A DNA stretch of 64,000 nucleotides from a virus: IMG/VR virus record IMGVR_UViG_2895319678_000007. One strand, given 5' to 3'. The notes beneath the pieces were generated by a model, which saw only the letters and a list, made by a program, of their open reading frames with translations, was not told where the DNA came from and ran no database searches. Position 1 is the first letter of the stretch, and every line of letters begins with the position of its first letter. The translations under genes and the position numbers were made by a program. Shown one piece after another: positions 3,118-43,044 of the stretch.

Positions 3118-3236
3118 CCCCCCTCCCTGCTAAGCCATGAGCGAAGCGAACCTTCTGCACGGAACGCGTTCGTACTCGACAGCATAATGTCTTTGATGAG
3201 ATTTAGTCGCGTTGGTTTTAAAATTGATGCGTTGTA
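3118..3236. repeat. Copy 1 of a ~118-bp imperfect direct repeat (ssi/primosome-site-like)
   Basis: CCCCCTCCCTGCTAAGCC(A/G)TGAGCG(A/G)AGCGAAC...TGTCTTTGATGAGAT aligns with 7555-7673 at roughly 80% identity. Confidence 0.85.
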
Positions 3237-3425
3237 CACTCAACAATATGAAATATATTATTTATTTTAACGTTATGGAACTTTTGGATGCATCGGGCGA
3301 AATACCCCTTAATCAAAATTTTCAAAATAAAAAATAATACACTGGCAAGTCTATTTCAATTTTGACTTATATGTTAAGTTAACCACCTCTTATTAAATCA
3401 TTAAAATAACTAGGATGGTGATTTT

Positions 3426-3905
3426 ATGTCATATATGATTTATCTATCGTTAAACGGTAAAAAACAAGGTCTGATATCTTCTGGATGCTCAACTCTCGAT
3501 TCCATCGGAAATCGATATCAAAAAGGACATGAGGATCAAATACAGGTACTTAGCCTAAATCATACTATTACACGAGAACAAAATGTCAGCCATCAACCTA
3601 TACAGTTTATTAAACCCGTAGATAAGTCATCACCACTATTGGCAATGGCTATAGACTCCAACGAATCGCTAGACGGTAAATTTATTTTTTACAGAACTTC
3701 TCAGTCTGGGCAATTAGAGTTGTTTTATGAGATTAAAATAACTGACGCTACTATCACTGATGTTTCTTGTGTATACCCTCACTCTATCAATAACTTCGAT
3801 GCCATCCCACATGAAAGGGTTTTCCTAAATTACAAATCCATCGCATGGAATCATATAACCGCTGGTACATCAGCATATAGCATATGGGAAGATAGAAATT
3901 ATTAA
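3426..3905 (+). CDS. hcp: Orphan T6SS tube protein Hcp (TssD)
   Basis: IYLSLNGKKQGLISSGC, HEDQIQVL, KPVDKSSPLL, Y.IKITDATI, E...LNYKSIAWNH motifs; 159 aa. Confidence 0.93.
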   Translation: MSYMIYLSLNGKKQGLISSGCSTLDSIGNRYQKGHEDQIQVLSLNHTITREQNVSHQPIQFIKPVDKSSPLLAMAIDSNESLDGKFIFYRTSQSGQLELFYEIKITDATITDVSCVYPHSINNFDAIPHERVFLNYKSIAWNHITAGTSAYSIWEDRNY

Positions 3906-3910
3906 TAGAG

Positions 3911-3935
3911 TAAGCATAGCATTTTGCTATGCTTA
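3911..3935. terminator. Bidirectional hairpin between convergent hcp and DUF1240 gene
   Basis: TAAGCATAGC-ATTTT-GCTATGCTTA. Confidence 0.65.
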
Positions 3936-4367
3936 TTTACATAACGATATGTTTTTCACATACTTATTAGTTTCCATCCATGATGTTTTATCACATAAGA
4001 AATAATTTTCACTTTTCAATTTAAATTCAACATAAAAAGAAAAAACCAAAGTAAAAACAAAACCAATTACAACCATAAAGGTAAATAATCCGCCCAATTT
4101 ATTACTCGAATTAACCTTTTTTTTATTAATTAACGCTATATTTTTTTTACTTAAAATAGACTTAAAAAGAAGTAAAGATATATACATACATAGTGGACTA
4201 AACCAAATAAACCAAGCGCTTCTTATTGAGAATGTAATAATATCACTTCCAGTTAAAAGACCTACATAATCAATTATAGAGGCTAAAGCCCCCAATATAG
4301 ATGCACCCATAAATATGAGTGCCGAAACAGAAATCTTCACTTTCGAAGGAGAATTTATATTATCCAC
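3933..4367 (-). CDS. DUF1240-family membrane immunity protein (Tmi-like), cognate copy
   Basis: Three hydrophobic segments, C-terminal FKLKSENYFLC...NKYVKNISLCK; overlaps the effector stop. Confidence 0.8.
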   Translation of the reverse strand: MDNINSPSKVKISVSALIFMGASILGALASIIDYVGLLTGSDIITFSIRSAWFIWFSPLCMYISLLLFKSILSKKNIALINKKKVNSSNKLGGLFTFMVVIGFVFTLVFSFYVEFKLKSENYFLCDKTSWMETNKYVKNISLCK

Positions 4368-5253
4368 GTAGAGATCTCCCCCACATATTGAAAAATTGAT
4401 CGGGATGATAAGGTGTAGGAGGCTTCGCTGTTCTTTTTTCTTTCAATTTTTTAATTATAGATTCACTGATTTTTAATTCATTATCTAACTCCATTAATCC
4501 CCAAACGACAATAGCTCCAACTACAAAAACACCAAACGCTATAGCAGTAGCACTCAAAGCTGTGGTAATAACGAGCGAAGTTGCTCCTGTAATTGCCAAC
4601 CTAGCTATTGTGGTTCCTATAATCAACTTTGCCATATCCATTGATAAATTAACAAAAAAATCTGTTAATTCATATTCATCCTTAAGTAATAGTTCTACTG
4701 CTCTATATGCAGCGGAGAATACAATACAAAATTTAACACCTGAAACAAGACTACTTTCCATAGCGACAGAACCTACACCAACCTCCATTATTTTTTTATT
4801 TTTTATAAGATATCTTGTTGAATTTAAATATTTTCTTACCCCAGGAGTGTCTGTTAATTTTATATACCTCACTCCATTTTTTCCTAAATATTCTATAGCC
4901 TTTACGCCTTTACCTTTTAATTCATTTACTATATGAGTCATTATACCAATATCTATAGGTTTAAAATTTGATGCTACTTTTAAAACTCCTGGAATATCTC
5001 TAATGTTCCCTGCAAAATTTGAAAGGACATCAGTGGTTGGATAAACATTATCCCGAATAGATTTCATATTACCTTCTAACTCTTTCAAAAAAAGTATAGC
5101 TTCATCTTGATCTAATATAGCGTGGTAATCTATGTTTTCATTTAATTGTTTTTTTAGGTCTTTATAATTAATGTGATCCATTTGCTTTTTAAAATTCGCT
5201 TCATAGTTGAAATCATCTTCAACCCATGTTCTTAATCTTGGATCATATTTCAT
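4360..5253 (-). CDS. Tme-like membrane-disrupting T6SS effector
   Basis: YIKLT.TPGVRKYLNSTRY motif, long C-terminal hydrophobic helices, immediately upstream of DUF1240 and beside hcp. Confidence 0.7.
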   Translation of the reverse strand: MKYDPRLRTWVEDDFNYEANFKKQMDHINYKDLKKQLNENIDYHAILDQDEAILFLKELEGNMKSIRDNVYPTTDVLSNFAGNIRDIPGVLKVASNFKPIDIGIMTHIVNELKGKGVKAIEYLGKNGVRYIKLTDTPGVRKYLNSTRYLIKNKKIMEVGVGSVAMESSLVSGVKFCIVFSAAYRAVELLLKDEYELTDFFVNLSMDMAKLIIGTTIARLAITGATSLVITTALSATAIAFGVFVVGAIVVWGLMELDNELKISESIIKKLKEKRTAKPPTPYHPDQFFNMWGRSLRG

Positions 5254-5269
5254 TTTATAACTCCTTTTT

Positions 5270-5378
5270 ATTATTTATATCATTTTAATTACATTTATAT
5301 TTTATCGGATTCAGATATTTTTTCTTTAGTTTTTCTGCATTATTGAGAACTTTATCCATTTTACTTTCCAGTGCCTTT
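5270..5378. repeat. Duplicated upstream segment, copy 1 (copy 2 at ~6040-6143)
   Basis: TTTTAATTACATTTATATTTTATCGGATT...GCATTATTGAGAACTTTATCCATT..ACTTTC.AGTGCCTTTA in both copies. Confidence 0.85.
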
Positions 5379-5560
5379 AGAGTTATTTTATGAAGTTAAA
5401 ATAACCGATGATACTATCACTGATGTTTCTTATGTATATCCTCACTCTATCAATAACTTCGATGCCATCCCACATGAAAGGTAAATTACAAAGCCATCGC
5501 ATGGAATCATATAACAGCAGGCACATCAGCCTATAGCATATGGGAAGATAGAGTATTGTA
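5376..5560 (+). pseudogene. hcp: 3' remnant of a second hcp with a frameshifting deletion
   Basis: Near-identical to 3715-3900 (CTCACTCTATCAATAACTTCGATGCCATCCCACATGAAAGG); lacks the 5' half and several nt after GAAAGG. Confidence 0.88.
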
Positions 5561-5591
5561 AAAATATAAACTAAGCATATATTACATATGC

Positions 5592-6020
5592 TTAGTTACA
5601 TTCATCCATATTCTTGACATATTTATTAGGTGCAATTAAAGATGTTCTGCTACATTTAACGTATCCAGATTTCTTTAATTTATGATCAACATATATAGAT
5701 ACAGGAAAACTAGATACAAAAGATAAAGCAAAAATAAGTATGCAAAAATTCAAAAACAAACCACTAAAAGGAGATGGTTTATTAACTAATAGATTTTTTA
5801 TTGCTGATATAAACATATAATAGACTATTGGTAGCCCGAAACATGCAAAAAAAACCCTCCAAGAAAAATATATTTTACTATTCATTTTAATTAATGATAA
5901 AAAATCAACCCAAGAAAAATATAAATATAGTGTTGTGATAAACAAGAAAAAAACTGACATCACAATACAGAAAATTCTATTAAATATACTTATGTGGATT
6001 TTTTTATCTTTATTATTCAT
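5592..6020 (-). CDS. Orphan DUF1240-family immunity protein
   Basis: Same architecture as 3933-4367; ends KLKKSGYVKC...NKYVKNMDECN; no effector upstream. Confidence 0.8.
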   Translation of the reverse strand: MNNKDKKIHISIFNRIFCIVMSVFFLFITTLYLYFSWVDFLSLIKMNSKIYFSWRVFFACFGLPIVYYMFISAIKNLLVNKPSPFSGLFLNFCILIFALSFVSSFPVSIYVDHKLKKSGYVKCSRTSLIAPNKYVKNMDECN

Positions 6021-6348
6021 ATCTTACCTTTAATTCCTTTTTATTATTTTAATTACATTTATATTTTATCGGATTTAGCTATTTTTTCTTTAGTTTTTCT
6101 GCATTATTGAGAACTTTATCCATTATACTTTCTAGTGCCTTTAAACAAATTCCACGATAAACAGTGTATAGCGCGGGAGTACACTCTATAGCTATAGCAA
6201 GTCCTGTTCAAAAAACAGGCTTAATGTACAATAATTTTCGATATCCAAACTGACCTTATAGTCAATATCAATAGTTAGTCTAACCAAATTGACCAGACCA
6301 ATGAAAGTAGTATACTTAAAAGTGTGAATTCATAAGAGAGGTCATTCT

Positions 6349-6594
6349 ATGGAAAAGATTAATATATATGATGCGAAAACTAACTTGTCCAGAATTGTTC
6401 AGGAAGTCGCTCGCACGGGTGAACCCGTGATGATTGCCAAGAATGGTCATACCCTGGTTAAAATCATTGCATACAGAGAAGATAAACCGAAGCGTAAACT
6501 GGGATTCCTCAAAGGTAAAGGTATCATTCCCGCCAATTTTGACGATATGAATGCCCCCGAACTTGTTGATATGTTTGAAGGAAAAGACTCTTAA
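6349..6594 (+). CDS. vapB: Phd/YefM-family antitoxin
   Basis: NIYDAKTNLSRIVQEV..GEPVMIAKNG; stop overlaps the toxin start. Confidence 0.88.
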   Translation: MEKINIYDAKTNLSRIVQEVARTGEPVMIAKNGHTLVKIIAYREDKPKRKLGFLKGKGIIPANFDDMNAPELVDMFEGKDS

Positions 6595-6995
6595 TGGATT
6601 TGCTGTTAGATACCAATATTTTGCTGTTTATGGTATATGAACCGGAAAAATTGCAAAGCGATATTGTTGATATTCTTGAAGATACAGACAAAACGCTTTG
6701 CTTTAGTGCGGCGTCTATATGGGAAGTCGTCATTAAAAGCAATCTGAACAAAGCTGATTTTTCCGTCGATCCCGAACAGTTCCGGGACGGACTGTTTGAG
6801 GCTGGTTTGATTGAAATTCCTATAAAAAGCGCGCATGTGCTTGTTGTGAACGATTTACCTGAAAAACTACATAAAGACCCGTTTGATCGGTTAATTGTCG
6901 CCCAGGCTAAGTATATCAAAATTCCACTGATCACAAGTGATAGAAAGCTGATAGATCTTGTTAGTGATTACATAACCGTGATCCCTAACAAATAG
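6594..6995 (+). CDS. vapC: PIN-domain toxin VapC
   Basis: LLLDTNILL, SAASIWE, HKDPFDRLIVAQA, LITSD. Confidence 0.92.
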   Translation: MDLLLDTNILLFMVYEPEKLQSDIVDILEDTDKTLCFSAASIWEVVIKSNLNKADFSVDPEQFRDGLFEAGLIEIPIKSAHVLVVNDLPEKLHKDPFDRLIVAQAKYIKIPLITSDRKLIDLVSDYITVIPNK

Positions 6996-7002
6996 TCAAA
7001 AT

Positions 7003-7040
7003 GGGGTTCGCTTGGAAAACGGAAAATATCCCACGCTAAA
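7003..7040 (+). mobile_element. Solo 38-bp Tn3-family (Tn21-like) terminal inverted repeat
   Basis: GGGGTTCGCTTGGAAAACGGAAAATATCCCACGCTAAA compared with Tn21-type GGGG...GAAAACGGAAAATAAAGCACGCTAAG; no partner or tnpA seen. Confidence 0.75.
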
Positions 7041-7111
7041 TGATTTAATTCTGCACAGTGAACTTTCCGAGGGAAAGGGCGAAAATCCCCTTTATAGAAG
7101 TAATAAATAGC

Positions 7112-7417
7112 TTAAAAAAAATAGATGCCTGAATATATTGCACACATACTCCCAATCATTGAGAATGGTTGAATCCGTATGACTCCAGTAAGGAAAATCC
7201 CAACGCTACCAACCAACACCGCTGAGCTTTTTCTATCAAAATGTCCAAAATGTCCAAAATGTCCAAAATGTCCAAAATGTCCAAAATGTCCAAAATGTCC
7301 AAAGTGGCCAATCGCTAATCCAATTAAAAAGTAAGGTAAGTATCCGGAAATAAAAAATAACACGGCAGAAATTAATCCAAATTTGAAATCATCCATTAAA
7401 TTATTACTCTTTGACAT
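7112..7417 (-). CDS. Small membrane protein with a (His-Phe-Gly)n loop
   Basis: Strong SD GGAGG; hydrophobic segments flank eight HF(G/D) units. Confidence 0.7.
   Translation of the reverse strand: MSKSNNLMDDFKFGLISAVLFFISGYLPYFLIGLAIGHFGHFGHFGHFGHFGHFGHFGHFDRKSSAVLVGSVGIFLTGVIRIQPFSMIGSMCAIYSGIYFF
7238..7309. repeat. 9-bp tandem repeat AAAATGTCC x7 plus one degenerate copy
   Basis: Counted directly; in frame within 7112-7417. Confidence 0.97.
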
Positions 7418-7554
7418 TATTTATCTACCTCCAGTGATCACTATGATGACATCGCGTTGAGAAAATCTTTCTATTATAAAATAGCGTATAAATTTAAACG
7501 AAAAATAAATTATTTAACAATAAGTTATGAAATATCATTGGGCGCAATATCCAG

Positions 7555-7673
7555 CCCCCTCCCTGCTAAGCCGTGAGCGGAGCGAACTTTTCTGCACGGA
7601 ACATGCTTGTACTCGATAGCATAGTGTCTTTGATGAGATCTGACCGCGCGGGTTTTGAGATTGAAGTGCTGTA
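7555..7673. repeat. Copy 2 of the ~118-bp repeat, next to the plasmid origin
   Basis: Contains GTGAGCG; aligns with 3118-3236. Confidence 0.85.
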
Positions 7674-8116: not shown

Positions 8117-9202
8117 TTACGTGACTACGACCCCTTCCTGCTCCAGCAAGAGTCGGTAAAACTGTTCTGAGTTTTCCGTGATATGGGGGTGCTGGGCTTT
8201 TACTTTAGTCCGAGCAAGGTAACTCGCCACGGTTGTTGTTGTGCGTTCCCACTGGACAAATAAGTCCCAGTAAGGCCGCGTGGATTTCTTTTTCCCGCGC
8301 AGGCGTGATACAGCCTGCTGCGTCTTCTCCAGTTCCGCTTCCAGATTTTCTGCACCCTGCTTATCCAGCACGTCAATCTGGTCTTTGATATCGTTAATCG
8401 CTTTCTCTTTTTGTTCCTGTAAATCAGGTGCGACAACGGAACGTTTGATATTCTTCAACAGTTTACGCAGGCCATGTTTATTCTGGATATCAATGCCCAT
8501 CCTTTCCATGCGTAACAAATGGCGCTGATATTTCTTATCCAGATTTTCTAACTGACCACTCTTAATCGCCCAATTTTGAAAGTCGATCAGGCTTTGCCGG
8601 ATTTCCTGATGCGGAATCCCTTTGGAGATAAAAAAGTCCGGTGTCAGCCAAATACGTACCGGTTTATTCTGCCCCGTGTCACTGTCTTTATCTCTGTGCA
8701 CCACCAGATGTTTCATTTGCTCAAAGACGGATAAGGCATGTAACGCCGTATCATAGGCTTTACGCCCATTCTCGTATTGATGCAGCACCCCCATTGCTTT
8801 CGCAATAAATTCAAAAGGCACCATCACTTCAAACAGATAATCATGGCTGGGGAAAAAATCCGCATGAGCCACCAATGCCAGCGCGAGTGATGTCATGGCC
8901 TCACGGCTTTCAGACCGGGCACGCACACGCATTGGCTTGCGCGTAAAATGGGTATTATTACGCTCTGAATAGGGAACATAGCCCTGTTGACGCAGGGCAA
9001 TTAAATCCCTGTCGAGCCACCAGTTGTGAACTTTCAGGGTACGCGAAAGACGCGCAGGCGTCCCTCTCGGAACCGGAATATCCTGATTCGGTGTATTGCG
9101 CCGATGGATTTTAGACTGCCCTTTTCGCAGGGCATTGGACTCGCCACGCCGGGTACGAACAAGGTTATCAGAAGCTGATGGGGTGTGTTGAACTTTATAC
9201 AC
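8117..9202 (-). CDS. repA: Plasmid replication initiator, IncFII-RepA superfamily (IncL/M-I-B/K-like control)
   Basis: RSESREA..LALAL, FIAKAMG, DTGQNKPVRIWLTPDFF; true start likely GTG 9202, overlapping the leader stop, with SD AGGGG. Confidence 0.88.
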   Translation of the reverse strand: MYKVQHTPSASDNLVRTRRGESNALRKGQSKIHRRNTPNQDIPVPRGTPARLSRTLKVHNWWLDRDLIALRQQGYVPYSERNNTHFTRKPMRVRARSESREAMTSLALALVAHADFFPSHDYLFEVMVPFEFIAKAMGVLHQYENGRKAYDTALHALSVFEQMKHLVVHRDKDSDTGQNKPVRIWLTPDFFISKGIPHQEIRQSLIDFQNWAIKSGQLENLDKKYQRHLLRMERMGIDIQNKHGLRKLLKNIKRSVVAPDLQEQKEKAINDIKDQIDVLDKQGAENLEAELEKTQQAVSRLRGKKKSTRPYWDLFVQWERTTTTVASYLARTKVKAQHPHITENSEQFYRLLLEQEGVVVT

Positions 9203-9251
9203 AACCCCTGCACTTATGGCGGGGATCAAAAAGTTGCAATAGAAGTCTCAT
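9195..9251 (-). CDS. repB: 18-aa rep leader peptide MRLLLQLFDPRHKCRGCV
   Basis: Hand translated; SD GGAG upstream; its TAA overlaps the repA GTG. Confidence 0.8.
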   Translation of the reverse strand: MRLLLQLFDPRHKCRGCV

Positions 9252-9267: not shown

Positions 9268-9356
9268 GCAGAAACCAAATGATTTCTGCTCCATGATACC
9301 CCGTAACTCTGAAACCGTCCGCCAAGATAAGTCCAGATTATGGGGTTTCTGCTTTT
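9268..9356 (+). ncRNA. Antisense replication-control RNA (Inc/RNAI-like)
   Basis: Stem ACCCCGTAACTCTG/CAGATTATGGGGT with a CCGCCAA loop (target loop UUGGCG) followed by a U-tract; complementary CCGCCA at 9217-9222 of the mRNA can form the pseudoknot. Confidence 0.8.
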
Positions 9357-9510: not shown

Positions 9511-10098
9511 TTATACACTTTGTGACTGCTCTGCGCCATCACGGGTTTTAAACTCTCTCAGTACCCGATAGATAGTAGCAACCCCGAAGTCAAATTCCTT
9601 TGCGATTTCACTGATTGTCGCTCCAGCCTGACGGCGTGCATAAATGTCGTTTCGTATAGTATCATTTAATTTTGCGGGACGCCCAAATTTAACCCCGTTT
9701 TCTTGCGCTTTGGCTATCCCTTCAGCCTGACGTTCGCTGCGTAAATCATTTTCGAATTCGGCAATAGACGCTAACATATTGAACATCAAACGCCCTGTCG
9801 AAGTTCGGGTATCAATATTCTGATCCAGCACAACGAGATTAATATCTTCTTGTTGAAAGCGAGTAGCAATTTGTGACAGGTGCGTCACAGAACGGGCGAG
9901 ACGGTCTAGTTTAGTCACAATCAACGTATCCCCCTCACGTAAATAATTCATACATGCGTGGAACTGTGGACGCTGTGCGGTACGACCACTACGTTTCTCC
10001 TGATAAATTCGTTTGCAGTCAGCCTGCCTTAATTTATCAAGTTGTATATCTAAACTTTGACCTGTTGAACTGACTCGTGCATACCCGATCTTTGCCAT
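9511..10098 (-). CDS. Serine resolvase with C-terminal HTH
   Basis: IGYARVSS..Q, GDTLIVTKLDRLARS, TSTGRLMFNMLASIAEFE. Confidence 0.95.
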   Translation of the reverse strand: MAKIGYARVSSTGQSLDIQLDKLRQADCKRIYQEKRSGRTAQRPQFHACMNYLREGDTLIVTKLDRLARSVTHLSQIATRFQQEDINLVVLDQNIDTRTSTGRLMFNMLASIAEFENDLRSERQAEGIAKAQENGVKFGRPAKLNDTIRNDIYARRQAGATISEIAKEFDFGVATIYRVLREFKTRDGAEQSQSV

Positions 10099-10781: not shown

Positions 10782-11465
10782 TCAAACAGTGTAAGACACT
10801 GATCCTTTGAAAAAACTTTCGGGAATATAGTTAGCTATGTTATTTTCATAACAATATTCAACTAAATCTCGCTTACGTTTACCACCTATTTTTTGATAGA
10901 TATGTTGGAGATTATTCTCAACGGTTCGTTGAGATAAAAATAAGCGTTCAGCAATCTCCTTAGTTAAAAACCCTTGCAGAATATAAAACACGATTTCCCA
11001 TTCTCTTTTACTGAAAAAGTCAGATGGTTGCGTAAACACTAACGATGTTGGCACATTGATTTTGGTTAGTCTTTCGAGTGTTATTGTATCTACTGGTCTT
11101 CCATGAAAGATGGTGCCGTGACATACCCCGTTTTCATCGAGTATGGGGTACTTATCACAATACCACGGTTGAAGATAAGTCATTTTTTGAAAAGGATGTA
11201 TTTCAATTGAAGTTACCCTATCTAATATTGCTTCAACCCTCCTGTCCTGTCTTTGGAATTCTTCCTGAAAATTTGCTGTACATGATGGAATTTCACCATC
11301 AAAACGCCCTTCTATATTATACCCTTTAGGTAGGCAAAGCATCTCATTATGTTTTTCATTGGCATAGATAAATCGTGAATTGTTATCTTTTGCTCCCCAC
11401 GGATCATTACTGTTTTCCCAAAACCTAATTAACGGCTTAATTAAATCTTCTACTGACCTATTCAT
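10782..11465 (-). CDS. PAS-domain LuxR-family transcriptional regulator (LuxR solo)
   Basis: N-terminal PAS (PWGAKDNNSRFIYAN), C-terminal SKREWEIV..ILQG...KEIAERLFLSQRTVENNLQHIYQK. Confidence 0.9.
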   Translation of the reverse strand: MNRSVEDLIKPLIRFWENSNDPWGAKDNNSRFIYANEKHNEMLCLPKGYNIEGRFDGEIPSCTANFQEEFQRQDRRVEAILDRVTSIEIHPFQKMTYLQPWYCDKYPILDENGVCHGTIFHGRPVDTITLERLTKINVPTSLVFTQPSDFFSKREWEIVFYILQGFLTKEIAERLFLSQRTVENNLQHIYQKIGGKRKRDLVEYCYENNIANYIPESFFKGSVSYTV

Positions 11466-30003: not shown

Positions 30004-31098
30004 TTAATCAACAACACGCCCTTGCAACATTGCCAACTGGAACTGATCTTCTATCTTCTGATAGCGTTCTGCGTCCATTTGTCCCGACATAAATGCTGCG
30101 TAAGCCTTATCGTATTCGCGCTGACTCAACACCTGTTTGCGTTGAACAGGCGGTGTATTCCCCAGCGCCGTGCCCTGATAATTGACCGGCTGATGGAGTT
30201 GTCCCTGACTGCCCTGATTTAGACCACTGCGAAAGGTCTGTAATAAACTGATCAACCGTTGTGCATCACCCTGTTTCCAAGCCATATCCACGAGTTTTCC
30301 GTATGAATATCCTCCGGCGGCTTCCGAATTGCGAAATGTCGTAAATGCCGGATGTGCTGTTAAGGTTTCGACATCGGGCACCTGAGAACGGATGATAATG
30401 TTCATTTCCTGCTCCGGTGTCATACCTTGCGAAGCTGGCGTATTCTGTGATGCTTTCAGTTGATTAAGTTCACCTTGTAACCGAAATTGTTCCTGTGCAA
30501 TACGTTGTAGATTCGGAGCCATACTCTTAAGTATCTTTTGTGTCTGCTCGGCGGCTTGTTTCCGAATATATTGCGCAGAGTCACCGTAGATTTTTTCTTC
30601 CTCGGCTGAGATCTTAATATCATCAAGATTGACCTGGGGTATCAGCGACTGCAAAAATTGCTCTTGCTCTTTCTGTTGTTGTTCGGCCAGTTGTTGCTGT
30701 CTGATCTGTAAATCCTGTTGTTGTTGGTGTTGCAAACGCTGGTTCTCTAACTGGAGCCGTTGTGCTTCAAAAAGCTGTTGCTGCTGTTGATTGTGTTGCA
30801 TCTGGGTCAGCAACGCACTCAAATTCGGATCGGTTATCACTCCTGATGTATTGGCTTGCCCTGCGGGGGGTGTACCTGCTGTGGAGGACAGCCCTTTAAT
30901 ATTGCCCTGATCATCAAAAAGACTGATAACATCATAGTCGTTCTGGCCTTGTGCATTCCGTGGCTCTTGCGGCTGTCCCTGAAAACCGTTTTGTGCGGGC
31001 TGCGCTGTTGAGGGCGTCCATGTTGCTGTATTGTTCTGTGTCGCAGGAGGCTGTTCCCATACCGGCTGATTCGTATCATCGTTAAATAAACCTGGCAT
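30004..31098 (-). CDS. Capsid scaffolding protein
   Basis: Gln-rich coiled coil immediately upstream of the MCP; C-terminal MLQGRVVD. Confidence 0.65.
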   Translation of the reverse strand: MPGLFNDDTNQPVWEQPPATQNNTATWTPSTAQPAQNGFQGQPQEPRNAQGQNDYDVISLFDDQGNIKGLSSTAGTPPAGQANTSGVITDPNLSALLTQMQHNQQQQQLFEAQRLQLENQRLQHQQQQDLQIRQQQLAEQQQKEQEQFLQSLIPQVNLDDIKISAEEEKIYGDSAQYIRKQAAEQTQKILKSMAPNLQRIAQEQFRLQGELNQLKASQNTPASQGMTPEQEMNIIIRSQVPDVETLTAHPAFTTFRNSEAAGGYSYGKLVDMAWKQGDAQRLISLLQTFRSGLNQGSQGQLHQPVNYQGTALGNTPPVQRKQVLSQREYDKAYAAFMSGQMDAERYQKIEDQFQLAMLQGRVVD

Positions 31099-34522: not shown

Positions 34523-36532
34523 CTATCTCCCCAAAGAATGATTCATCTGGTTAATCGTTTGGATCGCCTGCGCACTCCGCCCATCCAGCGGTTGTGTATA
34601 ATCACTGTTATTCATCGCGGGTGCCCCCTCGATTGTCCCACTTTGCCCCGCGCCCACATTGTCCGCCATGCCTGTCAGTGACGCGATAATACCCTGATCC
34701 TGATTCATGGCATCCTGTAGTGCGATATTGGGTAATCCTTTTGTATCAACGCCCATCTGTGATAGAAGCTGCTCCAGAATACGCATAACAAATGCCGGAG
34801 GCACTTCAAATCCTTTGGCAAACGGTGCAAGAGACTGCAACACCCAAGTCAGATTCCCTTGTTGTTTTTCTTTTTCTTGCATTCCACGAACACCACTGGC
34901 CCGGACATTCACATCCCCTTTCAGCGAAGGGTTCGGATTAAACTGTAATTCTATGTCCACAAAGCGTTGTATGATGGGTTCAATCACATGATTTTCTGCA
35001 TACAGTAAGGGTTGCTTAATCGCCTTACTCGCCTGATTTAACATCATAGAGACGCCCCCCGATGTTCGGCCAAGCGTAGCCGCACCTTCTGTTTGTCCGA
35101 ACGCCAACCGGGGTATCCCGATTAATTCGTAAGCAGACGCATGGGCTTTATCAAAAATACTCCACAGCTCTCCGGCAAGACTGGGAATAGTATAAAACCG
35201 GTAAGCCGGTGCATTCTGGCTGAACGGATCTTGTTTAACCGGCGTAATCTTACGGGGATAAATTTCAGTCGGGTCACCTTCCCCTTTCACACGAGCCGTA
35301 TCCACTTCACCTAATGGGCCAGCAGAAAAATCCATATTGTTCACGAGTGCGCGCCCCGCCGTCGTACATTGGATTTGAACATCTTCAATCGTTTCCGGAA
35401 TGCTGCTTCCCCACAGTTCGCCCGGTAAATGGTAAAAGGCCGCTGTATAAAATGGCCGACGCCCCAGTGGATCAGGGTTCAGAACACATTTAATAATTGT
35501 ACCGGCCAACACCCATATTTCAGATTCATAAAGTCGGTATTCATTACTGATATCAACCCCGTACTCTTTTAATTTTGCACCCTGTATTCGGCCATAATGG
35601 ATCAAGACATCATAGATACCTATCCACGATAAGTCAGAGACACTGGCAATGCCGGAATCACCCAATGCATCCGGCTCTATTTCGCTACCGGTGGCTTCAT
35701 AAGGTAAAATGTACTTTTCATGATCCTGCAAGACATAAAATATCGATTCGGCATCAAAACCCACGGTGCCTGACATATCGAGAAGTTCACTCGACGTGAG
35801 TCGCTGACGTTCGATAACATATTCACAGGACTGTACATCTTTGGCATTCGGGGAGGGGAAAATATTAAAGGGCGAAATATTATAGACGCGATGAACCATC
35901 TTATCCTGATAGACCATTGCCATACCGTCCCATTCTTTCATCTTCCGGGTTTCATAAACGGGGCCTTTCAGAATGGCTAACGGATACGCAACATAGTTAT
36001 ACAGCCATTGACTGAATTCTGTTTTGAAATTTGCCATTTTCAGCTTTTGTAAAACAACCGGATACAAATTATCTGCCGCTGTCTTCGCTGCCTCGTTATA
36101 AAACGTCAGCGCCGTTTGCGTCATATTCTTTAACAGGTTCGAGAATAACGATTCATCGCCTCCCGTCATTTCAATGATACGTTGGATATTGGTTTCAATG
36201 GCACTCATTAATTCATCCTGTACAGGCGCAGGTAACTGAGCAACAGGATCGGTTTCTAAAACAAAAGGCTGTTCAAGAATAGGGTCAAGGACTTCTTCAA
36301 TCTGTGCATGGACATTTCGGGTGATCGGGCCGGTAATATTCATGGCAACTTCAATCTCATCATCGTCTGGATCTACCGGCACCGAGTCAATCTGTCCTTT
36401 CATCAGGTCAAGGCTACGCTGACAGCGGCGATGTGCATCACTGTTTGACGATGCTGCTTGCGTATAACGTGCAACAATCAAATTTCCCAGTGTCGCATTC
36501 ATCTTTTCCTTACTGCGTGACAGCTTCGCCAT
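34523..36532 (-). CDS. Portal protein
   Basis: 669 aa after terL; RVYNISPFNIFPSPNA, LNPDPLGRRPFY, GRTSGGVSMMLNQASK. Confidence 0.85.
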   Translation of the reverse strand: MAKLSRSKEKMNATLGNLIVARYTQAASSNSDAHRRCQRSLDLMKGQIDSVPVDPDDDEIEVAMNITGPITRNVHAQIEEVLDPILEQPFVLETDPVAQLPAPVQDELMSAIETNIQRIIEMTGGDESLFSNLLKNMTQTALTFYNEAAKTAADNLYPVVLQKLKMANFKTEFSQWLYNYVAYPLAILKGPVYETRKMKEWDGMAMVYQDKMVHRVYNISPFNIFPSPNAKDVQSCEYVIERQRLTSSELLDMSGTVGFDAESIFYVLQDHEKYILPYEATGSEIEPDALGDSGIASVSDLSWIGIYDVLIHYGRIQGAKLKEYGVDISNEYRLYESEIWVLAGTIIKCVLNPDPLGRRPFYTAAFYHLPGELWGSSIPETIEDVQIQCTTAGRALVNNMDFSAGPLGEVDTARVKGEGDPTEIYPRKITPVKQDPFSQNAPAYRFYTIPSLAGELWSIFDKAHASAYELIGIPRLAFGQTEGAATLGRTSGGVSMMLNQASKAIKQPLLYAENHVIEPIIQRFVDIELQFNPNPSLKGDVNVRASGVRGMQEKEKQQGNLTWVLQSLAPFAKGFEVPPAFVMRILEQLLSQMGVDTKGLPNIALQDAMNQDQGIIASLTGMADNVGAGQSGTIEGAPAMNNSDYTQPLDGRSAQAIQTINQMNHSLGR

Positions 36533-36537
36533 CGTAT

Positions 36538-36606
36538 TTACACCCTGTATTTTTTGCTACGGGCAGGACAACCCGTTTTACGATTACCACAACGCGCGTA
36601 ATACAT
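36538..36606 (-). CDS. 22-aa basic peptide MYYARCGNRKTGCPARSKKYRV (not in ORF track)
   Basis: Strong SD GGAGG; fills the gap between the 105-aa gene and the portal. Confidence 0.55.
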   Translation of the reverse strand: MYYARCGNRKTGCPARSKKYRV

Positions 36607-36614
36607 ATAACCTC

Positions 36615-36932
36615 CTATCTTAAACGTGATGTTAAGTGTGGTGCAGTGACTAAGATAAAGTTATAAACAACTGCCATATCGGGTTCTTTCGTCGCAAGGA
36701 AATAACTCTTCACAATGTCCGATGCCGATCCAAACAGTAATGTCCATACGGTTGCCATCTGCGTTTCTATCGGAATTAACGTCTGACAAAGCGTCGTAAC
36801 GGCTTCGGGCAGTTCTGTCCCATTCGTCGGACTGCCCTCAATAGTATCGCATATTTGCAGTAAGTCATTAACATTTGATTGAATTCTGTTCAGAAGAACA
36901 CGTGTTCCATCAATATCTAACCCCTTAATCAT
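36615..36932 (-). CDS. Hypothetical protein
   Basis: 105 aa, overlaps the terL stop. Confidence 0.6.
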   Translation of the reverse strand: MIKGLDIDGTRVLLNRIQSNVNDLLQICDTIEGSPTNGTELPEAVTTLCQTLIPIETQMATVWTLLFGSASDIVKSYFLATKEPDMAVVYNFILVTAPHLTSRLR

Positions 36933-38455
36933 ACTCTTTTCCTCCGGACAAAATGATACCGGGTGCGTGGTTTTACCCGTTCATCGGGGGCATTGTCGCT
37001 GCGACTGTTCACCACATCATAACCCAAACATAAGTACTGTAATGCGTCCATCAGATCCGACACCCAACCAATATGGGATTTTGTCGGCGTCTCCATGACG
37101 GTATCCGTCTTACCTTTGATATTTTCATAAATATATTTATCATCGATGGCTTTAATGGTCATGACACAGTTGTCACATATTTGCAGCATAGGTACTCCCT
37201 CGCTGTCTAATGTTCGGAGACGACGACTGACCGCTTCAATACGCGGCTCCAGTTTATTTCGGGTATCCCACGGTACGGAGATGGGAATTTTTCGCTGTCG
37301 CAATACACCAAAAGGAGACAGCTCTACGGCTTGTCCTTTATCGGCCCCCGCCGGATCACCCCACGCGCCCGCAATAACATTACGCGTATACTTCTGCATG
37401 AGAACCGGACGACAATAACCGTCAAACAAGGTGGAGACGGCCATCGCCTCCCCCATCACTTCATCCGTGATCACAATACGCCCTGTCTTCGTCCCAATGC
37501 CTATCAGCATGACGGGGGTTCGTCCGAAGTCAAAAGCAAGATAAACCGGGGCACCATCAGGAATACGAACACTATTGCGGGGAATAACATGAAGCGGAAC
37601 ACGAAACTCCGGGAACACCACCTTGCCTGTTTTCAGGGGGGAAAACATTCCTTCAACATAAGCCCGGATATAGTCATCGGAATTTCCCAGCATCTTATAA
37701 TAATAATTATAGCCGTCAGCCAGATTATGAATGTTTTCGGCTTTTGGATTGGGTATCCATTCTCCGCCGGGATCTTTCGGCCGTAACAAGGCAGGCGGTT
37801 GTTTGAATAATTCAAAATACGGGCGACCAATTTCGCGTTCGATTTTTTCCCAGATAGGCTTTTTCTGTAATGACCAGGTATAAAGCCAATGGCTTTCTTT
37901 GGGGCCGTTGGTGGTAAATAACATACCTGTCCAGGTAGGAGTGCCCCGCACCGCTGACGGATAACGCCCGATACGTGTTGAAATCACTTCGACAATTTCT
38001 TCAGGTATCTCTGAGGCTTCATCAATCATCACCCCCGTCATTTCGGCACCCAGCGCGTCCCCTAATGCCGCTTCACTGTCCATTGCGGCAAATTGCCATT
38101 CACTGTGAATGCGCGTTCCATCCGGTAAATCCATCTGCCACGTCGCCAGAATATTGGGGCTTTCCACCACATGGCTGTAATTCATAAGGCCACCCATTGC
38201 CAGTTTGAACGTTTCTAATGTGTTACGTTTTAACTGCTTGTTGGTATTTCGAATGACGACCCAACGGGTATAACGCGTGCGGTCTGCGTTGGCCGGAGAC
38301 TGAATGAGAGAACGGATGATCAAATCTTTAAATGCCTTCGTCGTTTTTGCCGATCCCGCTGGCCCAATGACGCCCCGGATATAAGCATTACTTCGGTGCA
38401 TCTGTAATAGCGTTTGATGTTTATCAAAACTTAAATCTACTTCGAGACGCGCCAT
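36929..38455 (-). CDS. terL: Terminase large subunit
   Basis: Walker A GPAGSAKT, Walker B VMIDEASE, RNase H motifs AFDFGRTP and DLMDALQY. Confidence 0.93.
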   Translation of the reverse strand: MARLEVDLSFDKHQTLLQMHRSNAYIRGVIGPAGSAKTTKAFKDLIIRSLIQSPANADRTRYTRWVVIRNTNKQLKRNTLETFKLAMGGLMNYSHVVESPNILATWQMDLPDGTRIHSEWQFAAMDSEAALGDALGAEMTGVMIDEASEIPEEIVEVISTRIGRYPSAVRGTPTWTGMLFTTNGPKESHWLYTWSLQKKPIWEKIEREIGRPYFELFKQPPALLRPKDPGGEWIPNPKAENIHNLADGYNYYYKMLGNSDDYIRAYVEGMFSPLKTGKVVFPEFRVPLHVIPRNSVRIPDGAPVYLAFDFGRTPVMLIGIGTKTGRIVITDEVMGEAMAVSTLFDGYCRPVLMQKYTRNVIAGAWGDPAGADKGQAVELSPFGVLRQRKIPISVPWDTRNKLEPRIEAVSRRLRTLDSEGVPMLQICDNCVMTIKAIDDKYIYENIKGKTDTVMETPTKSHIGWVSDLMDALQYLCLGYDVVNSRSDNAPDERVKPRTRYHFVRRKRV

Positions 38456-39639: not shown

Positions 39640-39830
39640 ATCAATTAGACGACAACAGAATCCAATTAAAAGACAGCGAAGCCCTTTCTGTCCGCGTAAC
39701 AGATTGTGCTACCAATAAAAATCAAACGAATAATACACAATCTTATCAATCCGACTATGATGGTAAATCCTATAAACCACCGGTCACCTATCAGGGGCGC
39801 ACAAAAAATGATCCTATTTATTCGACGTAA
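39636..39830 (+). CDS. 64-aa hypothetical protein
   Basis: ATG overlaps the upstream TGA; converges on the fibre gene. Confidence 0.5.
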   Translation: MNQLDDNRIQLKDSEALSVRVTDCATNKNQTNNTQSYQSDYDGKSYKPPVTYQGRTKNDPIYST

Positions 39831-41775
39831 GAGTCAACATATTTGCGTTCGACAACAACTGAATCACCTGATTTAAGGTCTTTATCACATCCCCCAGTGA
39901 TGCGTCTGCGGGAAGAAGTGAGACAATATTATCTTTATTATTTTTATACGCATCAGAAATAGTCGCCAAACTGTATAGATCCTGCGGTGGCAATGTATCT
40001 CCTAAAATCGTCGTATCAAGATAGAGCTTTACACGACCATCATGGGCAAAGCCTATTACGCCTCCTCTATACTCCCCCATTTTGTCCTGCGGATTGACTT
40101 TTTTAAAGCCAGAAAAAATAACATCAGGTTTACCTTCTGTGAAAACTTTATCTTCTTGATCCTTACTGAAAATATTATTCGAAGCCAGCCAATACGACCC
40201 TGCAATATCCTGTATATAAATTTGAGCCATATTACTGTTTAAAAGATCTGCCCACTGAGTGAAGTCAATACTAGCACTCATAAAATCTCTTACAACAACA
40301 CCGTTTGGTATGAGTGCGATTTGATACGAACCATTACCACTGACTATCACTCTTATTTTGGCAGAAGGATCAGAGGTTGGCCCATTTTTTATGGTATTCG
40401 GTGTCGGATTCGTTGTTGCATCGTAGTCACCTTCCCAAATAATGTAGGTCATTGGCCCCGACAACGTATTAAAATCCACCGGATTTTCTTTTGTTGAAGG
40501 TAATTCCTTTACATTCACCACTTTTTGTAACTGTTCCACATTCACCGCATCATAAGGCAATGTTCCTGCTGCGACATTGGTGAGTGTTCTCTGCAAATTT
40601 GCACCAACGTTGCCTATCGATACGGTATCCGGAGTGGTCACGCTACTTTGATATCCAATAGCGACACTTCCTTTCGCAGTCACTTGTGCTTCATTGCCGA
40701 CCGCTATCGCGTTTTCAAATGCACTGCTCTTTTTACCAATCGCAATTGCGCCTTTTTCTGTTGATTGTGCACTGAGTCCGATGGCAATAGTCTGATCGTA
40801 TATGGCCTGTGCACTTATACCAAGAGCAATAGCTTGCGCACCTGTTCCCGTTGCATTTACCCCTAGCGCGATCCCCCCATGAGGCGCAGTCGTATTAGCA
40901 CTCAGATCGCCCACCTCAGAATCCGCCGCAACAGACAAATAGCGAGCCACCTCTTTCGTAATCCCCACGACATACAATCCCTTTTCTGAATATGTCAGCC
41001 CGTTGGAAACGTCATTAGCAATGAATAAACTGACTTTGGTAGGATCATCGGGTTTTTGACTATCTGTCTTCACCTGAAACTGTGTGTAAAGAAAAGATTG
41101 CTTTGGCACATAAAGGCCATCATCTTCGCTAAATAGTACATTATCTTCTTTAGCACTAACGGAAGCCCCCTTTCCTGTTCCTCCTGCACTAAAGAGCCCA
41201 TCCTTTTCCAAAGTCAGTGCATTCCCTTTTTGATTGGACAGTTGAACGCCAATTGTCGTTGTTTTATGTGTTTCATCAACCGTGGTCTGCGTAGTGATAA
41301 TTGATGCATCTTTTGCGCTGATTTTATCCTCTATCGTAGGGCCTACCTTTCCTTTCATCGAATCTTCAAAGGCTTTTTCTGATGTATCGGCTCCGACAGG
41401 TTGTTTCGACTTCCAGAATTCATATGCCGATTCTCCAGTCTTCCCTTCCATATATTTCTCAAAGGCTTTTTCTGATGTATCGGCTCCGACAGGTTGTTTC
41501 GACTTCCAGAATTCATATGCCGATTCTCCAGTCTTCCCTTCCATGTATTTTTCAAAGGCTTTTTTCGATGTATCCGAACCCCGAGATTGCTGCTCTTTCC
41601 AGAATTCATACGCAGATTCTCCGGTCTTCCCTTCCATGTATTTTTCAAAGGCACACTCCGATGTATCCGAACCCGAAGGCTGGTGCTCTTTCCAAAATTC
41701 ATACGCAGATTCTCCGGGTTTACCACGGCGCATGGGACGATTACCTAATGTGCGATCATTTTCACAGCCGTTCAT
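39814..41775 (-). CDS. Virion fibre with 31-aa repeats, YadA-like head/neck and head-fibre-like C-terminus
   Basis: GESAYEFWK repeats; xAIAIG repeats; RTLTNVAAG...DAVNVEQL neck; DASLGDVIKTLNQVIQLL end; no beta-barrel anchor or signal peptide. Confidence 0.8.
   Translation of the reverse strand: MNGCENDRTLGNRPMRRGKPGESAYEFWKEHQPSGSDTSECAFEKYMEGKTGESAYEFWKEQQSRGSDTSKKAFEKYMEGKTGESAYEFWKSKQPVGADTSEKAFEKYMEGKTGESAYEFWKSKQPVGADTSEKAFEDSMKGKVGPTIEDKISAKDASIITTQTTVDETHKTTTIGVQLSNQKGNALTLEKDGLFSAGGTGKGASVSAKEDNVLFSEDDGLYVPKQSFLYTQFQVKTDSQKPDDPTKVSLFIANDVSNGLTYSEKGLYVVGITKEVARYLSVAADSEVGDLSANTTAPHGGIALGVNATGTGAQAIALGISAQAIYDQTIAIGLSAQSTEKGAIAIGKKSSAFENAIAVGNEAQVTAKGSVAIGYQSSVTTPDTVSIGNVGANLQRTLTNVAAGTLPYDAVNVEQLQKVVNVKELPSTKENPVDFNTLSGPMTYIIWEGDYDATTNPTPNTIKNGPTSDPSAKIRVIVSGNGSYQIALIPNGVVVRDFMSASIDFTQWADLLNSNMAQIYIQDIAGSYWLASNNIFSKDQEDKVFTEGKPDVIFSGFKKVNPQDKMGEYRGGVIGFAHDGRVKLYLDTTILGDTLPPQDLYSLATISDAYKNNKDNIVSLLPADASLGDVIKTLNQVIQLLSNANMLTLTSNK
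41353..41724. repeat. 93-bp tandem repeat x4 (coding)
   Basis: Encodes GK(T/P)GESAYEFWK...DTSE.AFEKYME. Confidence 0.93.
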
Positions 41776-41856: not shown

Positions 41857-42042
41857 AAAGACTCAATAAATAACTTTGTATGACTCAATATGAGATTTTA
41901 TCGGTGCGCTTATTTGTGAACATACGAATATTTCTCAAATTGAGTCATTGAAAGACTCAATAAATATCTTTGTGTGTTCGATTTTGCACTTATGGATTTT
42001 GTACGCTATAATTTTAACTTTTGTATGACTCAAATTGAGAAA
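41857..42042. promoter_or_regulatory. parC-like centromere/operator repeats
   Basis: GACTCAA motif five times, in direct and inverted arrangement, immediately upstream of parM. Confidence 0.72.
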
Positions 42043-42060
42043 TTAAAAAGGGGTATTGAA

Positions 42061-43044
42061 ATGCATGTTGCTTGTGATGATGGCTCTACCGCCGTTAAAT
42101 TAGCCTGGTTTGAAGACGATAAATTAGAGACGTTTACGTCACTGCATTCTTTTCGTAAAGGATGGGCCGTCAATAGCGGAATAGGTAAACGACAACTATT
42201 TAATTTTGAAATTGCGAATACCAACTATACCTTTGGGTACGCTGATAGCCGCTCGTTAAGCAGTACCAATATTGAATACCAATACAATGATCTGAATCTG
42301 CTGGCGATACACCATGCATTACTAACCAGTGGCATTCCACTACAACCCGTTGATCTCACCGTCACACTGCCTATCAGTGAGTACTACAATGCAGACTGTC
42401 AGAAAAACACATTGAACATCGAACGTAAAATCGCCAATGTGCTTCGTCCGATTAAGCTGAATAACGGTGAATGCTTTCCTATCCGCAACGTTGACGTCAT
42501 GCCGGAATCACTGACTGCGATTTTTTCTGCGGTAGCGAAATATAATGTTGGCCCAATGGAAAAATCGCTGGTGATTGATTTAGGCGGTACAACTATAGAT
42601 AACGCCATTATTCTCGGACAGTTTGAAGAAATTACCAATATTCACGGCAATTCCAATATCGGTATGAATCTTGTCACAAAGCCTGTTATGTCCGCGTTAC
42701 AAATGGCAGATAGTAATATGAGTGAATATATGGTTGATGAAGTTATTCGCCAACACAATAACACCGATTTTTTAAAACAGGTTATCAATAACCATGCCAA
42801 AATTCCGTTCGTTTTAGATACCATGAAGCAAGCGATAGAACAGTTAAACAAACTTGTTATCAACGAATTATCCGATTTTCGTGATGTTAATCGTGTCTGG
42901 ATCGTGGGGGGAGCAGCGGAAGTGATTGAACCATCCATTCGGAAAAACTGGCCGATTCCAAAGGAAAAAATCATTGTCGTTCCTAATGCACAGACCGCAC
43001 AAGCCAGAGAAATTGCGATGTACATGAGACAAAAAGGATCATAA
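42061..43044 (+). CDS. stbA: Actin-like partition ATPase ParM/StbA
   Basis: VACDDGSTAVKLAW, VTLPISEY, VMPESL, IDLGGTTID, IVGGAA; start corrected to 42061. Confidence 0.95.
   Translation: MHVACDDGSTAVKLAWFEDDKLETFTSLHSFRKGWAVNSGIGKRQLFNFEIANTNYTFGYADSRSLSSTNIEYQYNDLNLLAIHHALLTSGIPLQPVDLTVTLPISEYYNADCQKNTLNIERKIANVLRPIKLNNGECFPIRNVDVMPESLTAIFSAVAKYNVGPMEKSLVIDLGGTTIDNAIILGQFEEITNIHGNSNIGMNLVTKPVMSALQMADSNMSEYMVDEVIRQHNNTDFLKQVINNHAKIPFVLDTMKQAIEQLNKLVINELSDFRDVNRVWIVGGAAEVIEPSIRKNWPIPKEKIIVVPNAQTAQAREIAMYMRQKGS

Follow-up and report, generated by a model that had tools for sequence, protein, structure and literature searches.

The 64,000-nucleotide stretch of DNA analysed here (the window) comes from a Xenorhabdus phage-plasmid and carries, at 3426-5253, a genuine Hcp auxiliary T6SS module of the Tme/Tmi type. 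Both its parts and its logic are already known. Three defining features of such modules are present: an intact hcp gene outside the main T6SS cluster; a linked effector–immunity pair; and a host that encodes a T6SS. On balance it is probable that the locus is the trimmed remnant of a mini-plasmid co-integrate, bearing an Hcp-Tme/Tmi weapon delivered by the host T6SS, that was captured by the phage-plasmid.

An earlier note on this DNA had proposed an intact Hcp convergent with an effector–immunity pair, and the genes agree (Table 1). In Pfam and NCBIfam profile searches, the full-length hcp product scores 83.9 bits with PF05638 and, across positions 1-156, 195 bits with TIGR03344, and its best relative of solved structure is P. 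aeruginosa Hcp3 (3HE1, E 3.8e-26). It is 88% identical to the Hcp of a 4.9-kb mini-plasmid, 91% identical to copies in chromosomal islets, and 38% identical to the Hcp of the host main cluster. On the plus strand, hcp faces tmi1 and tme, both on the minus strand, across a hairpin that is probably a bidirectional terminator of hcp and tmi1. All three genes of the unit drawn in that note are there, but its span was too narrow: the real unit is the insert at 3119-7673 (4,436 bp), which lies between two copies of a repeat, R, that are 82% alike.

Table 1. Features of the insert and its carrier (positions in the window).
Feature	Coordinates	Strand	Basis
R, left copy, 118 bp; insert boundary	3119..3236	+	82% to right copy; origin-proximal element homology
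hcp, intact orphan-type Hcp, 159 aa	3426..3905	+	PF05638, TIGR03344
Hairpin with 10-bp stem between convergent hcp and tmi1	3911..3935	.	Seen directly in sequence
tmi1, DUF1240 (Tmi) immunity protein, 144 aa	3933..4367	-	PF06836, hydropathy
tme, Tme-family membrane-disrupting effector, 297 aa, 33.5 kDa	4360..5253	-	Homology and motif
Scar U1, about 21 last codons and trailer of the gene after mobA; region upstream of tme	5263..5379	-	C289 match
hcp 3' remnant and trailer, pseudogene, from about codon 97, 7-nt gap	5377..5578	+	Repeats D3, D4; tblastn
Terminator-like hairpin of second unit	5569..5597	.	Hairpin in sequence
tmi2, orphan DUF1240 gene, 142 aa	5592..6020	-	PF06836-type domain, without upstream tme
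Scar U2, second mob-gene 3' end, joined directly to tmi2	6027..6143	-	Repeat D2, 91%
VapB/Phd-type antitoxin	6349..6594	+	PF02604
VapC PIN-domain toxin	6594..6995	+	PF01850
101-aa hydrophobic ORF with 9-nt tandem repeat	7112..7417	-	ORF and repeat listing
R, right copy; single-copy in empty sister element	7555..7673	+	Repeat search
Plasmid replication initiator	8117..9229	-	71% to Rep of Xenorhabdus plasmids AP028980.1, NZ_CP147736.1
Serine resolvase	9511..10098	-	PF00239
Portal/head-tail connector and large terminase, podovirus-type	34523..38455	-	phrog_332, phrog_2
ParM/StbA partition ATPase	41974..43044	+	PF06406, phrog_691

The effector matches no Pfam or NCBIfam model, and no PAAR or VgrG domain was found in it. 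Nevertheless, homology to the tested protein Tme-AIEC (the PAAR-Tme of E. coli LF82; BLASTP E 3e-23, 32% over 133 aa) bears out the earlier suggestion of a Tme-like effector: D206, K209, and D257 align with D301, K304, and D347 of Tme-AIEC, so the protein is related to Tme. These residues are invariant across the family alignment, and a hydrophobic helix (hydropathy peak 232-250) lies between D206-x-x-K209 and D257. What defines the Tme family is a C-terminal domain that contains DxxK, a predicted membrane helix and, further on, an Asp, together with a downstream immunity gene of the DUF1240 type (Fridman et al. 2020, PMC7046647); D301 of Tme-AIEC is required for toxicity (bioRxiv 10.64898/2026.10.08.757527). 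A Tme family profile built without E. coli or Vibrio proteins scores 170.8 bits on Tme-AIEC, at most 1.6 bits on shuffles, and 122 bits on a 304-aa hcp-linked E. coli protein, whose length and gene spacing equal those of entries in the published Tme table. (An AlphaFold2 model of the window Tme had low confidence, with pLDDT 58 and pTM 0.32; a Foldseek search found nothing at E <= 0.001, and the model was left out of the conclusions.)

The expected DUF1240 immunity partner adjoins the effector. Directly downstream of tme, with an 8-nt overlap, tmi1 encodes a protein with three hydrophobic segments and a PF06836 match (91.4 bits, E 6e-26); it is the predicted cognate Tmi of the window Tme, and is 71% identical to the mini-plasmid Tmi. 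Tmi proteins typically have 3-6 membrane segments, a range into which the three of tmi1 fall. The two genes almost certainly constitute a Tme/Tmi pair. Tmi2 is regarded as an orphan because it is 31% identical to Tmi1 and 65% identical to the Tmi of another Tme subtype, of which no member was found in the host genome. The other Tmi proteins of the host are 27-38% identical to Tmi1 and Tmi2.

How the module arrived can be read from the insert boundaries and scars. On Rep3 mini-plasmids, R is found shortly before the iterons and repB, and 33 of 34 nt of R are identical to mini-plasmid L056. A 66,792-bp sister element has a single R with nothing inserted, an empty site; a 66,914-bp sister has different cargo in that slot, including a lone Cse1/Cas8e-like gene; and the X. 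bharatensis sister holds a different tme-tmi-hcp set there, in the opposite orientation relative to R. Both module and insert have a GC content of about 31.5-31.6%, against 47.8% for the virion block. A 117-nt repeat, U, precedes both tme and tmi2, and is the in-frame C-terminus of a plasmid gene that follows mobA. (The label "mobB-like" for this gene reflects its position after mobA; Pfam gives no match.) U1 is 94% identical over 84 nt to C289, a plasmid contig of the same genome, the translation reading LKALESKMDKVLNNAEKLKKK in the window and LKALESKMDEALNNAEKLKKK-stop in C289. The effector gene formerly upstream of tmi2 appears to have been lost.

Two other readings of these repeats were dropped: U as a mere duplicated promoter, because it is in frame with the plasmid gene C-terminus (the scar may have been kept also as a promoter); and R as a Xer/dif site, since by eye each arm agrees at only about 6 of 11 positions and R sits beside Rep3 iterons. 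An ssi-like role for R is conceivable, as a guess. Predicted promoters were no more frequent than chance would give (25 found, 24.3 expected), and an Rfam search gave sub-threshold matches only, among them a weak CopA-like antisense RNA match at 9270-9350. Within the 101-aa ORF, the 9-nt tandem repeat at 7228-7317 (minus strand) codes for Gly-His-Phe repeats, with no family match. In the 66,914-bp sister, the Cse1/Cas8e-like gene encodes 428 aa (L007:11627-12913, minus strand), and a toxin-like ORF with a DUF3969 partner sits just left of the slot (L007:9573-10396, minus strand).

The replicon nearest to a donor is the circular contig MKGQ01000070.1 (4,879 bp, 99-nt terminal overlap), which carries R, Rep3 repB, hcp, tmi, tme, and ParDE. 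Window positions 3404-5364 are colinear with it (81.4% over 1,969 nt), and its Tme is the closest relative of the window Tme (80%) and its sister in a quick tree (SH-aLRT 97). Further circular mini-plasmids measure 5.2, 5.8, 8.0, and 11.1 kb, the last being in the host genome; the 8.0- and 11.1-kb ones also carry MobA/MobL. Mini-plasmid status is assigned here from terminal overlaps in draft assemblies.

A mini-plasmid origin of the insert is very likely, as judged from these sequences. The ancestral circle would have had the order R, repB, hcp, tmi, tme, mobB-like gene, mobA, and toxin–antitoxin (TA) genes, with hcp convergent to the genes from tmi to mobA. A single recombination at a shared R would have produced the direct repeat of R; later deletion of repB and the mob genes would account for the scars, and the second unit would have decayed to an orphan immunity gene. 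The observed order (R, hcp, tmi, tme, scar, and then TA and R) is that expected if a single crossover at R took place and repB and the mob genes were then lost. More than one exact donor or route would fit, because repB is gone, the X. bharatensis cassette is inverted, and the window Hcp is slightly nearer to the chromosomal islet copies (91%) than to that of the 4.9-kb plasmid (88%); nor does the Hcp tree resolve the donor. For the inverted cassette, either the donor had another orientation or an inversion took place.

The earlier impression that this module is surprising was overstated: its layout is common on Xenorhabdus, Photorhabdus, and Pectobacterium chromosomes and on mini-plasmids, and the host has two other pairs, on contigs C289 and C241. 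Of 36 Xenorhabdus genomes, 30 contain Tme homologues, mostly in the same convergent layout. The chromosomes of X. kozodoii, X. beddingii, X. khoisanae, Photorhabdus, and Pectobacterium have this layout too, at unrelated sites. A convergent hcp lies within 2.5 kb of tme in 29 of 43 islet-type Tme copies, which are related loci rather than independent ones. The U scar is retained in 27 of the 43, many of them chromosomal, and some retain repB or longer mob-gene fragments; mini-plasmids therefore probably seeded the chromosomal islets too. The islets share the gene layout, with 50-80% Tme identity and extra orphan DUF1240 genes, whereas the window module is extrachromosomal, on a phage-plasmid, with the full direct repeat from its capture still visible. 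Those of Pectobacterium have been noted before (bioRxiv 10.64898/2026.10.02.755747). The Pectobacterium homologue HER17_03600, 51% identical to the window Tme, is by its locus tag probably the predicted toxin upstream of the tuber-fitness DUF1240 genes.

The carrier is contig C101 (67,540 bp), which is circularly permuted relative to two 67-kb relatives in the draft assemblies and has, at both ends, IS sequence that splits one small gene; this draft-assembly evidence points to an extrachromosomal circle. The earlier designation as a phage-plasmid is upheld by plasmid Rep, ParM, and resolvase genes alongside terminase and portal genes, with virion production predicted from gene content. Virion genes comprise terminase, portal, structural proteins, and lytic internal proteins; a candidate major capsid gene (30004-31098) matches only unnamed viral clusters, the nearest phage terminases are 29-33% identical, and no integrase was identified on the carrier. 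Likewise, the claim that the element has no T6SS apparatus stands: among 18 T6SS query proteins, only the Hcp queries match C101.

Several observations concern the carrier group as such. Four podovirus-type Xenorhabdus phage-plasmids of about 67 kb share about 85% DNA identity over the virion block, and their terminases are about 30% identical to those of any isolated phage. Partition differs within the group (ParM in C101, ParA-type in X. bharatensis). The gene split by the IS, of about 120 aa and upstream of the primase gene (2-1120), is intact in a sister element; the insertion could affect the lytic cycle. A PAS4-LuxR regulator (10782-11465, minus strand) is conserved in sister elements, and a tail-fibre-like gene with YadA head and stalk repeats (39814-41775, minus strand) is variable among them.

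Cluster members assign the host to Xenorhabdus. Host contig C68 contains a full tssA-M cluster, and the host has two further TssC loci, many vgrG genes, and seven further orphan-type hcp matches. The description "apparatus-free phage-plasmid in a T6SS-positive host" therefore holds in these draft assemblies: C101 has plasmid and virion genes and, of T6SS components, only Hcp, and C68 has the cluster. On C241 the Tme gene is satellite-borne and has no adjacent hcp, so linkage to hcp is not obligatory. (Satellite-like elements C79 and C46, with hcp, and C241, without, have integrase, primase, capsid, and portal genes; their effector–immunity-like pairs sit between the primase and capsid genes, and in C79 the Hcp is extended at its C-terminus.)

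Published Tme proteins are toxic only when directed to the periplasm, where they insert into the inner membrane and dissipate its potential, an effect blocked by Tmi (PMC7046647; bioRxiv 10.64898/2026.10.08.757527). By analogy with the family, the window Tme would be harmless in the producer cytoplasm; in the periplasm of a neighbour it would insert into the inner membrane and collapse the membrane potential, and Tmi1 would neutralise it. Since the carrier has no apparatus, export would go through the host T6SS, and we regard delivery by that system as likely. Most plausibly, the linked Hcp would co-assemble into the host tube as the carrier of Tme, as the conserved linkage of tme to an intact hcp suggests. 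Co-assembly is assumed, given only 38% identity to the main-cluster Hcp, and a 33.5-kDa Tme is large for the Hcp lumen. We lean slightly toward a dependence of Tme delivery on the linked Hcp.

The linked Hcp may instead be dispensable, with Tme loaded by host VgrG/PAAR proteins or another host Hcp, and hcp staying beside it through common descent or because it anchors recombination. PAAR fusions exist among other Tme proteins, the satellite Tme on C241 does without hcp, the host offers seven further orphan-type hcp matches and many vgrG genes, and hcp 3' remnants recur in arrays. This alternative is nevertheless unlikely: the hcp gene is complete and strongly conserved (column identity averages 91%) while its partners diverge, and the linkage is kept in Xenorhabdus, Photorhabdus, and Pectobacterium, and is co-directional in E. 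coli. Somewhat less probable still is a mainly defensive cargo, in which two Tmi genes shield the host against the Tme proteins of other strains and the toxin is little used. An orphan tmi2 that is intact though its effector and hcp copy decayed would fit, as would the commonness of immunity arrays and the importance of the first DUF1240 gene of Pectobacterium clusters for tuber fitness. However, tme is full length with all motif residues present, and the Pectobacterium defect, seen in pooled mutants, is most readily put down to siblings actively attacking with the upstream toxin.

That the genes are a neutral passenger, leftovers of a decaying co-integrate held only by VapBC, is very improbable. 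One sister element lacks the module, another has unrelated cargo, and the insert has already shed repB, the mob genes, and the second unit; yet the deletions spared exactly hcp, tmi1, tme, and tmi2, and a second element independently bears a different hcp-tmi-tme set in the same slot. Hcp shares its fold with phage tail tubes, and membrane depolarisers are known in abortive infection, so Hcp might be conceived as part of the virion tube, or Tme/Tmi as acting in superinfection exclusion or abortive infection. Such a phage function is scarcely credible: the module lies outside the virion gene block, differs from it in GC content (31.5% against 47.8%), and is not carried by sister elements that share those virion genes. 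Among annotated phage isolates it has no match; the phage collection yielded no Tme match, and its four Hcp matches are not annotated isolates.

If the preferred reading of a captured, host-delivered weapon is right, carriers would kill non-immune competitors and element-free siblings, favouring the element in the population, and Tmi2 would protect against the Tme subtype of other strains. The earlier note had also called the module an addiction module. Only in one form is the idea consistent with the locus: contact-dependent surveillance of siblings would fit. Cell-autonomous post-segregational killing is unlikely, because published Tme proteins are non-toxic in the cytoplasm and act only from the periplasm. 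By its families, the conventional addiction pair of the insert is VapBC (6349-6995). Killing of cured siblings is plausible, provided that the host's other Tmi proteins give no cross-protection. Contact-dependent plasmid surveillance, in which cured siblings are killed on contact, is known for CDI (Ruhe et al. 2016, PMC4927057). The likeness lies in the proposed killing of siblings that lose the immunity gene; CDI loci, however, encode their own exporter, whereas the window module would rely on the host T6SS.

The Tme family has been published, as have Hcp auxiliary modules that are mobile and T6SS effector clusters borne by prophages. Like described members of the Tme/Tmi family, the window Tme has DxxK, a hydrophobic helix, and a later Asp in a C-terminal Tme domain, a T6SS-positive host, and a DUF1240 partner with three hydrophobic segments encoded directly downstream; it differs in having no PAAR fusion and in its phage-plasmid location. 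Where the E. coli members of 304 aa have hcp upstream in the same operon, the window has it downstream and convergent. In Vibrio parahaemolyticus, a plasmid-borne Hcp1b-DUF4225-Imm4225 module kills via the host T6SS (bioRxiv 10.1101/2022.08.02.502582, PMC9765294). The Vibrio modules likewise pair an orphan hcp with an effector–immunity pair beside mobility genes; their effector gene, however, follows hcp on the same strand, a defining arrangement from which the convergent window module and its relatives depart. The window toxin is moreover a Tme, and its vehicle a Rep3 mini-plasmid captured by a phage-plasmid. Prophage-borne clusters, such as the phiRSY1-like aux clusters of Ralstonia (PMC11481896) and V. 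cholerae Aux3 (PMC7721734), are similar in placing effector–immunity cargo without apparatus on a phage-type element. Those elements are chromosomally integrated, and in Ralstonia the clusters are built on vgrG, whereas the window cargo is hcp-based and sits on a carrier that has a plasmid Rep, ParM, and a resolvase and in which no integrase was identified.

In the searchable literature, which includes few subscription papers, no description was found of the mini-plasmids, of the 67-kb phage-plasmid group, or of a Tme module on a phage-plasmid. The locus adds a readable transfer path from mini-plasmid to phage-plasmid and chromosomes, for which the empty site serves as a control and a replicon close to the donor is available. 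The three-gene unit bears on how a PAAR-less Tme is loaded into the T6SS (is an orphan 159-aa Hcp its dedicated carrier?) and on whether T6SS effector–immunity pairs stabilise replicons by killing cured siblings, as CDI does. Xenorhabdus is an insect-killing bacterium, and the module is relevant to strain exclusion among Xenorhabdus symbionts in insect cadavers.

A broader reading is offered tentatively, as possible rather than probable: Rep3 mini-plasmids would be the "colicin plasmids" of the T6SS, carrying their own Hcp and a swappable effector pair, borrowing the host T6SS against cells that lack the plasmid, and seeding chromosomes and phage-plasmids through recombination at an element linked to the origin. 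If so, phage-plasmid virions would spread the weapon between strains. The hcp-linked slot also holds other effectors, such as DUF4225. Circular Rep3 Xenorhabdus mini-plasmids of 5-11 kb (C289, which is L074, and L118, L119, L127, and L106) carry hcp, an interchangeable effector–immunity pair, and TA genes. The completed plasmids NZ_FO818639.1 and AP028981.1 have hcp and a downstream gene, DUF4225 in NZ_FO818639.1. In the effector position of an 8-kb mini-plasmid (L106:1750-2511, minus strand) is a 253-aa protein with no Pfam match that is not Tme, a candidate for an undescribed Hcp-linked effector. Finally, Yersinia similis and Serratia fonticola have conjugative plasmids (L124, L125) in which hcp likewise comes directly after rep, which suggests that the position next to rep serves Hcp modules in general.
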